In this document: positions 133 to 4,612 of the stretch, piece after piece
Numbering within the stretch: the first letter of the stretch is position 1
How the letters are laid out: every line of letters begins with the position of its first letter
Source of the DNA: a virus
Taxonomy: Duplodnaviria; Heunggongvirae; Uroviricota; Caudoviricetes
Strand: one strand, 5' to 3'
Length of the DNA: 8,681 bases
Virus record (IMG/VR): IMGVR_UViG_2778261165_000009
Position numbers and translations under genes: made by a program
Notes under the pieces: model-generated
The model's input: the letters and a program-made list of their open reading frames with translations, nothing else
Told to the model about the DNA's origin: nothing
Databases searched by the model: none

Positions 133-555
133 ATGTTTCTGAAAACAGAACAATTTGAATATAACGGTGTGTCCGTCACGCTTTCCGAATTGTCTGCGCT
201 GCAGCGGTTTGATTATATAAAGTTTGTTTCAGACGCAGAACAACAGGAGACAACGAAGCATTATGTCGTGCACATTAACCAGCGATATCTGGAAACGGCA
301 TCCCTGCTTGTGGCGATGTCGCTATGGCATTCCCATTCCCTCAAAGGCACTCTGGCCTCTCCGGAGACAGAGATGCAGCAGATCCGCCGTGAAGTGATGC
401 TGGGATGGCCTGCTGATGCACTGAATCAGGCAACGAACCGGGTGCTTTATCTTTCAGGTATGCTGGATAACCGGCACGATGCCGATCCTGAACAAACCGG
501 GAAAGCAGAAGCGACTGAGCCGGTAACATCAAAAAAGCATTCGAAGGCGAGCTGA
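133..555 (+). CDS. G: Tail assembly chaperone G (140 aa)
   Basis: ATG 133 with SD; the 140-aa product begins MFLKTEQFEYNGVSVTLSELSALQR, recognisably lambda gpG-like, and has the same length as lambda G. It sits immediately upstream of the -1 frame T ORF and ends at TGA 553-555. Confidence 0.93.
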   Translation: MFLKTEQFEYNGVSVTLSELSALQRFDYIKFVSDAEQQETTKHYVVHINQRYLETASLLVAMSLWHSHSLKGTLASPETEMQQIRREVMLGWPADALNQATNRVLYLSGMLDNRHDADPEQTGKAEATEPVTSKKHSKAS

Positions 556-995
556 ACTTTGTCCTGAAACTGGCGCGAGAGATGGGGAGACCCGACTGGC
601 GCGCCATGCTTGCCGGGATGACATCCACCGAATATGCCGACTGGCGACGTTTTTACTGCACGCATTATTTTCAGGATACCCAACTGGACGCTCATTTTTC
701 CGGGCTGATGTACGCCGTACTCAGCCTGTTTTTTGGCGATCCGGATATGCATCCGGCGGATTTCAGTCTGCTTGCTCCAGCGTGTGAGGAAGAGCAGACG
801 GAGATGCCGGACGAGGAAGAAATGCTGATGCAGAAAGCGACAGGAGTTGCCGGAGGCGTCCGGTTCGGAGGGGACGGAGGGCGCGATATTTCACCTTCTG
901 CGGATGTGGTGGATGTCAGCGAGGATGATGTTGCATTAATGATGGCTTCAGCGGGGATTTCCGGAGGTGTGAGATATGTCCCAGCCAGCGGGTGA
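133..995 (+). CDS. G-T: Tail assembly chaperone G-T fusion made by -1 frameshift, join(133..537,537..995), about 288 aa
   Basis: G frame 133-537, then the -1 frame continues from 537 (AFEGELNFVLKLAREMGRPDW...) to TGA 993-995. This is the conserved G/GT arrangement upstream of the tape measure gene in long-tailed phages. The T-frame part includes an acidic tract (EEEQTEMPDEEEM). Confidence 0.85.
531..537 (+). promoter_or_regulatory. Programmed -1 ribosomal frameshift slippery heptamer A_AAA_AAG (G to T frame)
   Basis: In the G reading frame the codons are TCA AAA AAG (529-537), an exact X_XXY_YYZ heptamer. The -1 frame is closed by TGA at 516-518 and open from 519 to 995, so the shift has to occur between 519 and 552, and this is the only in-phase slippery heptamer in that interval. 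It lies 5 codons before the G stop. Confidence 0.75.
963..967 (+). promoter_or_regulatory. Shine-Dalgarno GGAGG for H
   Basis: GGAGG lies 8 nt upstream of ATG 976, embedded in the 3' end of the T frame. Confidence 0.65.
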
Positions 996-3588
996 TCTGG
1001 TTATTGATTTGAGTCTGGATGCGGCCCGGTTTGATGAACAGATGGCCCGGGTACGCCGTCATTTTTCCAGTCTGGAGGCGGATGCCAGAAAAACCGCCAG
1101 TACTGTTGAACAGGGGCTGAGCCGACAGGCGCTGGCTGCACAAAAAGCCGGGATATCAGTCGGACAGTATAAGGCTGCCATGCGCACACTGCCCGCACAG
1201 TTCACGGATATTGTCACTCAGCTTGCCGGTGGTCAGAATCCCTTCCTTATCATGCTGCAGCAGGGGGGGCAGATCAGCGATTCATTCGGTGGACCGCTCA
1301 GCCTGCTTACCCTGCTGAAGGAGGAACTTCTCGGGATCAGGGATGCCTCTGAATCATCAGAGGAGTCGCTGTCAGATACGGCAAATGCACTGGCTGAAAA
1401 TGCCCGGAATGCCGGTGAGCTGGGACGATTTATGTCGGTGGCCCGTGTGGCGGCAGGTGGCGGGGTTGCCGTACTGGCCGCGCTTGCTGCCGCCGCCTGG
1501 CAGGCAGAGCAGGCTGACCGGGCCTTATTGCGTTCACTGATCCTGACCGGAGGGGCGGCTGCCACCACAACGGCAGAATTGTGGAAAATGGCCGGGGTGA
1601 TCAGCGATGAAGCCGGTGGTGGTATCAGACAGGCGGCAGAAAATCTGGCCCGTCTGGCAGAAAGCGGGAAATATACCGCCGGGCAGCTACGGATCATGGG
1701 GGAAACCTCTCAGAGATGGCTGCAGACGGTGGGGGACGATGCCGGGAAGGTGGAAAAAGCCTTTGAAGGGATTGCAGCAGATCCGGTGAAGGCGCTGGCC
1801 TCCCTGAATCAGCAGTATAACTTCCTGAGCGTTTCCCAGTTACGCCATATTGATGAGCTTGAGCGCACGAAAGGTAAACAGGCTGCGGTGACGGAGGCGA
1901 TGTCCCTGTTTGCGGATGTCATGAATGCACGTCTGGAGCAACTTGATAAAGCGGCCACGCCGGTGGAAAAAATCTGGGACGATGTTAAAACCTGGACTTC
2001 TGACGCATGGGCATGGATAGGTGATCATACACTGGGGGCACTCAGTCTGATCACTGACGTGGTGGCCGGAACCGTTGAACAAGTGAAGCTGCTGCTTGTG
2101 CAGGGGGATCTGGCGCTGGCTGAATTTATTCAGTCAGCCTGGGAAACGACAAAGAATGTGCCCGGCGTTGGTGCGTTGTTTGGTGAACTGGCAGAAGAGA
2201 ACCGCGTATTTATTGAGAAAACAAAACGCGATGAACTGGCGCTGAGAAAATCCATTGCGGAACGGGATGCGCGTATACGCCAGGGGGAAATGGGGTACAT
2301 CAACCGCTCGCGTGCAACAGGCGTCAGCAAAGGTCCTGGGCAGCAGGAAGCCGTCAGCCGTCTGGCTGAAGAGCTGACAGGTAAAAAGCATACATCACCG
2401 AAAACGCGCTCTGCCGGGGAGAGGGAAGAGGAGCAGGCAAGAGAGGCTCTGCTTGCCCTTGAAGCTGAGCTCAGGACGCTGGAAAAACACAGCGGTGCGA
2501 ATGAGAAAATCAGTCGGCAGCGCCGTGATTTATGGAAGGCGGAAAGTCAGTATGCGGTCCTGAAAGAGGCTGCCACGAAACGGCAGTTATCCTGGCAGGA
2601 AAAATCCCTGCTGGCCCATGAGAAAGAGACGCTGGAGTACAAACGCCAGCTGGCTGACCTGGGCGACAAGGTTGAACACCAGAAACGCCTGAATGAGCTG
2701 GCACAGCAGGCGGTGCGGTTTGAAGAGCAGCAGAGCGCGAAGCAGGCCGCCATCAGCGCAAAAGCCCGCGGTCTCACTGACCGTCAGGCGCAGCGGGAGT
2801 CTGAAGCGCAGCGTCTTCGGGACGTGTACGGTGATAATCCGCAGGCGCTGGCCCGGGTCACCGGGGCACTGAAACAGACATGGGCGGATGAAGACATGCT
2901 GCGCGGTGACTGGCTGGCCGGGCTGAAGTCCGGCTGGGGGGAGTGGGCGGAAAGTGCGACGGACAGTTTTTCGCAGGTTAAAAGCGCGGCCACGCAGACC
3001 TTTGACGGTATTGCACAGAATATGGCAGCGATGCTGACCGGCAGCGAACAGAACTGGCGTGGTTTCACCCGTTCTGTGCTCTCCATGCTGACAGAGATTT
3101 TTCTGAAGCAGGCGATGGTGGGGATAGTCGGGAGTATCGGCAGCGCCATTGGCGGTGCTTTCGGTGGTGGTGCGTCTGCCTCCACGGGGACGGCCATTCA
3201 GGCTGCGGCGGCGAACTTCCATTTCGCGACCGGGGGATTTACGGGAACCGGCGGCAAATATGAGCCAGCGGGGATTGTTCACCGTGGTGAATTTGTCTTC
3301 ACGAAGGAGGCAACCAGCCGGATTGGTGTCGGCAACCTGTACCGCCTGATGCGGGGCTATGCGGAAGGTGGTTATGTGGGCGGTGCCGGAAGTCCGGCGC
3401 AGATGCGGCGGGCTGAAGGCATTAATTTTAATCAGAACAATCACGTGGTGATTCAGAACGACGGTACGAATGGTCTGCCAGGTCCACAGATGATGAAGGC
3501 AGTGTATGACATGGCCCGCAAGGGTGCCCGTGATGAAATCCAGGCACAGATGCGCGATGGTGGCCTGTTCTCCGGAGGTGGACGATGA
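976..3588 (+). CDS. H: Tail tape measure protein H (870 aa)
   Basis: An 870-aa ORF directly after G-T. The N-terminus MSQPAGDLVIDLSLDAARFDEQMARVRRHF and the C-terminal third (LLALEAELRTLEKHSGANEKISRQRRDLWKAESQ ... GGLFSGGGR) resemble lambda gpH as I recall it. It is Ala/Gln/Glu-rich and helical in character, with a Gly-rich hydrophobic segment near the C-terminus. Its start overlaps the T end by 20 nt. Confidence 0.93.
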   Translation: MSQPAGDLVIDLSLDAARFDEQMARVRRHFSSLEADARKTASTVEQGLSRQALAAQKAGISVGQYKAAMRTLPAQFTDIVTQLAGGQNPFLIMLQQGGQISDSFGGPLSLLTLLKEELLGIRDASESSEESLSDTANALAENARNAGELGRFMSVARVAAGGGVAVLAALAAAAWQAEQADRALLRSLILTGGAAATTTAELWKMAGVISDEAGGGIRQAAENLARLAESGKYTAGQLRIMGETSQRWLQTVGDDAGKVEKAFEGIAADPVKALASLNQQYNFLSVSQLRHIDELERTKGKQAAVTEAMSLFADVMNARLEQLDKAATPVEKIWDDVKTWTSDAWAWIGDHTLGALSLITDVVAGTVEQVKLLLVQGDLALAEFIQSAWETTKNVPGVGALFGELAEENRVFIEKTKRDELALRKSIAERDARIRQGEMGYINRSRATGVSKGPGQQEAVSRLAEELTGKKHTSPKTRSAGEREEEQAREALLALEAELRTLEKHSGANEKISRQRRDLWKAESQYAVLKEAATKRQLSWQEKSLLAHEKETLEYKRQLADLGDKVEHQKRLNELAQQAVRFEEQQSAKQAAISAKARGLTDRQAQRESEAQRLRDVYGDNPQALARVTGALKQTWADEDMLRGDWLAGLKSGWGEWAESATDSFSQVKSAATQTFDGIAQNMAAMLTGSEQNWRGFTRSVLSMLTEIFLKQAMVGIVGSIGSAIGGAFGGGASASTGTAIQAAAANFHFATGGFTGTGGKYEPAGIVHRGEFVFTKEATSRIGVGNLYRLMRGYAEGGYVGGAGSPAQMRRAEGINFNQNNHVVIQNDGTNGLPGPQMMKAVYDMARKGARDEIQAQMRDGGLFSGGGR

Positions 3589-3914: not shown

Positions 3915-4612
3915 TGCAGGATATCCGGCAGGAAACATTGAATGAATGCACCCGTGCGGAGCAGTCGGCCAGCGTGGTGCTCTGGGAAATCGATCTGACA
4001 GAGGTCGGTGGAGAACGTTATTTTTTCTGTAATGAGCAGAACGAAAAAGGTGAGCCGGTCACCTGGCAGGGGAGGCAGTATCAGGCGTATCCCATTCAGG
4101 GGAGCGGTTTTGAACTGAATGGCAAAGGCACCAGTACGCGCCCCACGCTGACGGTTTCTAACCTGTACGGTATGGTCACCGGGATGGCGGAAGATCTGCA
4201 GAGTCTGGTCGGCGGAACGGTGGTCCGGCGTAAGGTTTACGCCCGTTTTCTGGATGCGGTGAACTTCGTCAACGGAAACAGTGACGCCGATCCGGAGCAG
4301 GAGGTGATCAGCCGCTGGCGCATCGAGCAGTGCAGCGAACTGAGCGCGGTGAGTGCCTCCTTTGTACTGTCCACGCCGACGGAAACGGATGGCGCTGTTT
4401 TTCCGGGACGTATCATGCTGGCCAACACCTGCACCTGGACCTATCGCGGTGACGAGTGCGGTTATAGCGGTCCGGCTGTCGCGGATGAATATGACCAGCC
4501 GACGTCCGATATCACGAAGGATAAATGCAGCAAATGCCTGAGTGGCTGTAAGTTTCGCAATAACGTCGGCAACTTTGGCGGCTTCCTTTCCATTAACAAA
4601 CTTTCGCAGTAA
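3914..4612 (+). CDS. L: Tail tip assembly protein L (232 aa), with a C-terminal Cys cluster
   Basis: 232 aa, the same length as lambda gpL. Start overlaps the M stop as TGATG. The C-terminal cysteines (CTWTYRGDECGYSG ... KDKCSKCLSGCKF) are consistent with the reported iron-sulfur cluster site of gpL. Confidence 0.92.
   Translation: MQDIRQETLNECTRAEQSASVVLWEIDLTEVGGERYFFCNEQNEKGEPVTWQGRQYQAYPIQGSGFELNGKGTSTRPTLTVSNLYGMVTGMAEDLQSLVGGTVVRRKVYARFLDAVNFVNGNSDADPEQEVISRWRIEQCSELSAVSASFVLSTPTETDGAVFPGRIMLANTCTWTYRGDECGYSGPAVADEYDQPTSDITKDKCSKCLSGCKFRNNVGNFGGFLSINKLSQ

Follow-up and report, generated by a model that had tools for sequence, protein, structure and literature searches.

The closest described system is the G/GT pair of bacteriophage lambda (Levin, Hendrix & Casjens 1993; Xu, Hendrix & Duda 2004, 2013, 2014). 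Levin 1993, as quoted in PMC5009743, PMC7618472, and PMC3296357, gives GGGAAAG as the lambda frameshift site, and the first and last of these papers also quote from it a shifting frequency of about 4% and a G:GT ratio of about 30:1. The G-T frameshift is described as conserved across long-tailed phages (Xu 2004, as reported in a citing paper). Frameshifting at A_AAA_AAG in a tail chaperone gene is known already as well, in an unrelated chaperone family: the catalogue of Sharma 2014 (PMC4066793) lists a prophage cluster, A_AAA_AAG_25, with ECs1801, a tail assembly chaperone, marked "true", and Antonov 2013 (PMC3711429) reported 6 to 7% A_AAA_AAG frameshifting in HK97-type prophage genes (the ECs1801 cluster; GeneTack cluster 10). 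Finally, dnaX of Escherichia coli carries A_AAA_AAG together with an upstream Shine-Dalgarno-like stimulator and a downstream hairpin; there, slippage of the single tRNA-Lys reaches about 50% and yields a shorter product.

We analyzed a stretch of 8,681 nucleotides from a Caudoviricetes record (IMG/VR IMGVR_UViG_2778261165_000009), hereafter the window. It starts with the 3' end of a major-tail-protein gene, followed by G, an open -1 frame, the tape measure gene, and then homologues of lambda M, L, K, and I (Table 1). In matching records, the gene 5' of G is labelled major tail protein V, which gives the order V-G-T-H known from lambda. The Pfam Phage_TAC_2 family ("lambda tail assembly chaperone G") matches positions 133 to 552, and the RefSeq name of the G product is "phage tail assembly chaperone G". 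Phage_tail_T matches the -1 frame from 537 to 992, and lambda-type tape measure families cover 976 to 3585.

Positions 100 to 1000 of the window are 100% identical to the Stx1a-converting phage Stx1_9793 and 94 to 95% identical to VT1-Sakai, CP-1639, and several Stx2 phages. Among 5,426 complete E. coli genomes, 514 records matched the window at 99% identity or more, O157:H7 strains and O104:H4 2011C-3493 among them. We are confident that positions 133 to 995 represent the G/T tail assembly chaperone pair of the lambda-like tail module of an Stx1a-converting E. coli prophage. Its G-T site is an unremarkable example of textbook recoding, and the prophage family is among the most heavily sequenced. 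In E. coli 2013C-3277 (NZ_CP027331; locus L003), which is 100% identical to the window over positions 100 to 1000, PGAP flags the flanking major tail and tape measure genes as "frameshifted" pseudogenes; the window's own H reading frame is intact.

Table 1. Features of the G-T region, in window coordinates
Feature	Position	Strand	Basis
Gene G, tail assembly chaperone, zero-frame product, 140 aa	133..555	+	ORF; Pfam PF06894 Phage_TAC_2 (E=7.5e-35); 43% identity to lambda gpG
Out-of-phase GGGAAAG (GGG AAA G), chance look-alike	499..505	+	Phase; TGA 516-518; poor conservation
TGA in the -1 frame, 5' limit of the permitted interval	516..518	+	-1 codon list
Slippery heptamer A_AAA_AAG, predicted -1 programmed frameshift site	531..537	+	Phase reading; lambda alignment; conservation 39/39
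T segment, -1 frame, 152 codons plus stop	537..995	+	Translation; Pfam PF06223 Phage_tail_T (E=1.2e-11)
Predicted downstream RNA structure, role unproven	546..614	+	Fold prediction
Internal ATG, start of stand-alone T in public records	582..584	+	RefSeq CDS 783..1196 of L003, equal to window 582..995
Gene H, tape measure protein	976..3588	+	ORF; Pfam TMP_2 and Tape_meas_lam_C

The G codons at 529-531, 532-534, and 535-537 read TCA AAA AAG, which places positions 531 to 537 in X_XXY_YYZ phase as A_AAA_AAG. Five further codons (CAT TCG AAG GCG AGC) then lead the G frame to its TGA at 553-555. After a -1 slip, the codons from 537 would be GCA TTC GAA GGC GAG CTG (AFEGEL), in a frame that stays open until TGA 993-995. 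The predicted gpGT consists of G codons 1 to 135 followed by the T segment, that is 287 aa with the junction ...EPVTSKK-AFEGELNFVLKLAREMGRPDW.... A sequence-only reading of the window had already placed the shift at 531-537, five codons before the G stop, with TSKK followed by AFEGEL at the junction. Phase, lambda alignment, and conservation bear out the site, the -1 translation agrees with the junction, and all coordinates given in that reading were correct when checked directly against the sequence. Its further statement that the T frame opens exactly at 537 holds for the first codon after the slip, but the -1 frame as such is open from 519 onward.

A -1 shift can yield G-T only within positions 519 to 555 (12 codons). 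The heptamer at 531-537 is the sole in-phase heptamer in G, and it falls inside this interval. With 3 in-phase X_XXY_YYZ heptamers per 2,005 codons of the window's tail genes, the chance of finding any of them in a 12-codon interval is about 1.8%, and it is far lower for a top-tier heptamer. The only other two are T_TTT_TTC at 4021-4027 (gene L) and G_GGG_GGG at 1263-1269 (gene H). We rejected the raw count of AAAAAAG as evidence: the single copy in the 8.7-kb window is not above chance, the shuffle expectation being 0.70, with at least one copy in 97 of 200 shuffles. The argument rests instead on phase, position, and conservation.

We aligned this region with lambda (J02459), at both the DNA and the protein level. 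Both alignments were free of gaps, the two G products being 140 aa long each, and lambda G_GGA_AAG (10109-10115) occupied the same codons as A_AAA_AAG at 531-537. Lambda G (9711..10133) ends in GCG GGA AAG TGT TCG ACG GTG AGC TGA, while the window has TCA AAA AAG CAT TCG AAG GCG AGC TGA. The annotated start of lambda T, 10115, precedes the final base of the G stop by 18 nt, an offset equal to that between 537 and 555. The lambda site and T start given in the sequence-only reading are therefore right, and so is its suspicion of a heptamer substitution at the canonical position, lambda having GGGAAAG and not AAAAAAG there. In both phages the heptamer lies five codons 5' of the G stop, the A-site codon is AAG (tRNA-Lys), the sequence 3' of the heptamer is conserved, and the T parts are 68% identical. 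The two sites differ in bases 1 to 3 of the heptamer, AAA here and GGG in lambda, which gives a P-site codon AAA (Lys) instead of GGA (Gly), a junction dipeptide Lys-Lys instead of Gly-Lys, and a run of six A residues. The T part is also longer, with 152 codons compared to 144.

The HK97-type chaperone ECs1801 of Sakai prophage Sp9 resembles the window's G in its location, with the major tail gene on one side and the tape measure gene on the other, in its A_AAA_AAG heptamer at the 3' end of the chaperone gene, and in that the -1 product is the longer one. However, ECs1801 is a 124-aa protein of the Phage_TAC_1 family (PF06222) without similarity to G (BLASTP E=1.5), and its heptamer directly adjoins the stop codon, whereas that of the window is five codons away. 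We thus rejected the identification of the Sharma cluster A_AAA_AAG_25 with the window's G: ECs1801 belongs to a different family and is an analogue only, and the claim that this G had been catalogued already was dropped.

We next considered how frequent this form of the site is among relatives. We retrieved 110 related loci from viral and genome collections and scored 103 G genes, locating the G reading frame and listing in-phase heptamers followed by a long -1 frame. In this sample, which is redundant, dominated by E. coli, and includes about 20 loci of apparent lambda DNA contaminating unrelated assemblies, GGGAAAG occupied the slot five codons before the G stop in 60 of 103 genes and AAAAAAG did so in 39, including VT1-Sakai. 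In all 39 AAAAAAG and all 60 GGGAAAG loci, the -1 frame remained open for at least 100 codons after the heptamer. The AAAAAAG heptamer was invariant within its class (39/39) and was found on two G backgrounds, the window type and that of locus L040, which are only 49% identical to each other.

The apparent contaminants deserve a comment. Contigs L085-L097, L103, and L107-L112 are 98.6 to 100% identical to lambda J02459 9000-11000 (all but L109 at least 99.6%), and they are attributed to a Chromatiales MAG, Neobacillus, Oceanobacillus, Kitasatospora, Shewanella, Pseudomonas, Paenibacillus, Leeuwenhoekiella, Pseudoxanthomonas, Psychrobacter, Vibrio, Enterococcus, and Bradyrhizobium. Many of them have a coverage of about 1. 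This looks like contamination of the assemblies with lambda DNA.

The same comparison bears on a second candidate site, since the window also harbors, further upstream in G, seven bases identical to lambda's own heptamer (GGGAAAG, 499-505). A shift at this place would have to overcome the reading frames: the motif is phased GGG AAA G, re-pairing at -1 would give CGG GAA, and the -1 frame entered there terminates at TGA 516-518. Moreover, this GGGAAAG is out of alignment with lambda's site, and 15 of the 39 relatives with AAAAAAG no longer have it: 8 loci read GGG AAA A, 6 read GGT AAA G, and the divergent L040 has no such motif. The shuffle expectation of GGGAAAG in the window is 1.29. Shifting at the upstream GGGAAAG is already refuted by the reading frames, on the grounds of phase and stop codon that the sequence-only reading had put forward, and we give it virtually no probability.

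The T part is mosaic. VT1-Sakai (Sp15) and other EHEC Stx-converting lambdoid prophages share the G family of the window (96 to 100% identity) and TCA AAA AAG in the same place, but they have GGG AAA A in place of the upstream GGGAAAG, and their T part, with 117 codons, is shorter and divergent. In VT1-Sakai-type loci (L002 and the L032 type), G is 96 to 98% identical to that of the window, yet T is only about 65% identical. From sequence comparison, this mosaicism of T suggests a recombination breakpoint in or close to the G/T junction. On the other hand, the window T is 88% identical to the T of PhiR12_2_star (L116) and 82% identical to that of L099, both of which carry GGGAAAG and a lambda-like G. 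Since close T domains occur with either heptamer, the heptamers have been exchanged among mosaic G/T combinations, and this free exchange lends mild natural-history support to their equivalence.

We then examined where T-frame coding begins, using positional entropy over 38 distinct sequences. In the 60 nt 5' of the heptamer, the entropy at G-frame codon positions 1, 2, and 3 was 0.87, 0.72, and 1.21, with the peak at the third position. In the 18-nt overlap after the heptamer (from +7), the values for the T frame were 0.18, 0.38, and 0.62; here it is the third position of the T frame that peaks, and that of the G frame varies least (0.15). In line with this, the T-frame peptide AFEGELNFVLKLAREMGRPD matches lambda VFDGELSFALKLAREMGRPD beginning directly after the heptamer, and its conservation includes the very first residues (AFEGELNF... 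in the window and VFDGELSF... in lambda). Peptide conservation and the switch in codon-position pattern thus both begin at the heptamer, 15 codons 5' of the first ATG.

Public annotation tells a different story. RefSeq/PGAP and GenBank records (L003, L115, L116, and L002) present T as a stand-alone CDS from the internal ATG 582, with no ribosomal-slippage join; the annotation is of this kind in ASU11, PhiR12_2_star, and VT1-Sakai. One could therefore take T for an independent gene that needs no frameshift, all the more as a 137-aa "tail assembly protein T" starting at 582 is given by PGAP and in several phage records and this sequence is found on about 1,000 public contigs. Such annotation is, however, an ORF-caller habit and not evidence. 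The 15 T-frame codons from 537 to 581 are conserved as protein between lambda and the window and follow the T-frame codon-position pattern; the methionine of ATG 582 is part of a conserved motif, LAREMGRPDW, that lambda also has; and in lambda, T is annotated from the heptamer and GT is made by frameshifting. In addition, the sequence 5' of ATG 582 is GGCGCGAGAGATG, in which a purine run, GAGAG, abuts the ATG without Shine-Dalgarno spacing. We consider an independent T gene very unlikely, and ATG 582 is, as far as sequence can tell, probably an annotation convenience rather than the real T start.

An exact-sequence look-up of the 287-aa gpGT fusion in a collection of 15 billion proteins returned no entry, although G and the truncated T are each present on close to 1,000 contigs of the same collection. 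This shows that the missing fusion is an annotation gap and not an absence of the protein. The practical value of the present analysis lies in correcting this annotation: gpGT is missing from protein databases for a very widespread STEC prophage, so that studies of Stx-phage tail assembly by proteomics or structural methods would miss the real gpGT product.

We propose that translation of this region proceeds as follows. Most ribosomes would translate G through to TGA 553-555 and release the 140-aa gpG. A small fraction would undergo tandem slippage, the best-supported mechanism, while AAA (532-534) occupies the P site and AAG (535-537) the A site. Both tRNA-Lys would move back by one base to AAA/AAA (531-536), so that the peptidyl-tRNA would re-pair from AAA to AAA and the aminoacyl-tRNA from AAG to AAA. 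Both codons are read by the only tRNA-Lys of E. coli (mnm5s2UUU), whose pairing is better with AAA than AAG (PMC5009743). Reading would then resume at GCA 537 and produce the 287-aa gpGT across the junction ...EPVTSKK-AFEGELNF.... If lambda is a guide, the G portion may bind the tape measure protein (H) and the T portion may recruit the major tail protein (V), and tail assembly would need a large excess of G over GT.

Since A_AAA_AAG contains a run of six A residues (531-536) that lambda's GGGAAAG lacks, the -1 frame could also be reached mainly by transcriptional slippage. Addition of one A would give an indistinguishable ...SKKAFEGEL... protein, and reviews mention that both mechanisms may be in use at some sites. 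However, documented transcriptional realignment involves A runs of more than 7 or T runs of more than 8 (Antonov 2013, PMC3711429), and six A residues are below this range. Furthermore, three A residues are sufficient at homologous lambda-type sites to reach the same frame, and ribosomal shifting at A_AAA_AAG is proven in dnaX. Transcriptional slippage as the main route thus has only a very small probability, and ribosomal slippage at 531-537 remains our reading of the site.

Whether the heptamer alters the G:GT ratio is a separate question. The sequence-only reading had ranked A_AAA_AAG among the most shift-prone heptamers in E. coli and suggested that the ratio may differ from lambda's. The first part is correct, but the suggestion drawn from it receives no support. 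Sharma 2014 (PMC4066793, Table S3) compared all 64 heptamers in one E. coli reporter. AAAAAAG gave 0.291% frameshifting with no stimulator, 4.255% with the IS911 stimulators, and 39.0% with the IS3 pseudoknot; the corresponding values for GGGAAAG were 0.277%, 3.801%, and 43.0%. Both motifs were among the three most efficient. From the heptamer alone, there is no reason to expect a G:GT ratio unlike that of lambda. The bare heptamers reach about 0.3% in this reporter compared to about 4% for lambda G-T; local context probably contributes.

A material change of the ratio could still be argued for on the grounds that both slipping tRNAs would be tRNA-Lys here, compared to tRNA-Gly and tRNA-Lys in lambda, and that the 3' neighbor bases differ (GCA here, GUG in lambda), as spacer identity can matter. 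Nevertheless, the same-reporter values show no meaningful difference across three stimulator contexts, and the sequence 3' of the heptamer is strongly conserved between the AAAAAAG and GGGAAAG classes. The closely related T domain of L116 is coupled to GGGAAAG, so that the heptamers behave as interchangeable among mosaics. In addition, AAAAAAG is not rare among the scored G genes, and the lambda G:GT ratio is under strong selection. Equal reporter values, conserved flanks, and natural interchange leave no basis for an altered ratio, and we regard such a change as unlikely. With A_AAA_AAG functionally equivalent to G_GGA_AAG, the shift efficiency would be expected in the low-percent range, like that of lambda. 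The AAAAAAG form is common, old in databases (VT1-Sakai), and equivalent to lambda's in the reporter, and hence has little biological import.

There is one more speculative way in which the substitution might matter. Maynard 2012 found that hypomodified tRNA-Lys raises lambda frameshifting and lowers phage yield. Since the site of the window would be read twice by the single tRNA-Lys (mnm5s2UUU), and since this pathway is known to tune G:GT in lambda, the GT:G ratio, and with it tail assembly and the yield of Stx-converting phage, could be more sensitive than lambda's to host 2-thiouridine/Fe-S sulfur competition (TusA/MnmA versus IscU), and/or the six A residues could add a small amount of transcriptional slippage. 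If true, either effect would couple Stx phage particle production to host physiology, unlike in lambda. We consider this improbable.

We also searched the flanks of the heptamer for stimulatory elements. No Shine-Dalgarno-like stimulator was found about 6 to 17 nt upstream, the sequence from 505 to 530 (GCAGAAGCGACTGAGCCGGTAACATC) being devoid of any GGAG/AGGA/GAGG-type element. Downstream, an RNA fold was predicted with an outer stem at 546-552/608-614, starting 8 nt after the heptamer, and an inner GC-rich stem at 571-578/599-606 (MFE -35.3 kcal/mol, z = -1.93). The same fold was predicted in both heptamer classes, with 98.9% of cells paired compared to 28 to 44% when slid. However, only 2 pairs change on both sides, a count reached by 200 of 500 shuffles, and the region also encodes the highly conserved T peptide, which confounds pairing conservation. 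Because of the z value, the two double-changed pairs, and this overlap, we leave the role of the fold unproven. The literature describes the tailed-phage G-T shift as seemingly not using stimulators. Although the heptamer and the tRNA-Lys expected to slip on it are those of dnaX, the window thus differs from dnaX in that it has no Shine-Dalgarno-like element and only a predicted downstream structure, in that its frameshift product is the longer one, and in its expected low-percent efficiency.

Finally, a few loci in the census carry a third motif in the G-T slot. The non-canonical G_GAA_AAG was found in 3 of 103 G genes, all from Kluyvera prophages (L100-L102) and five codons before the stop, and in 1 of 103, from Entomohabitans (L104), two codons before the stop; the codons at this position are CTG GAA AAG or GCG GAA AAG. 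The motif does not conform to XXXYYYZ, as P-site re-pairing from GAA to GGA is mismatched, and yet the T frame is still open and conserved. These loci may represent sites that shift on A_AAG only, or they may be apparent intermediates between GGGAAAG and AAAAAAG.
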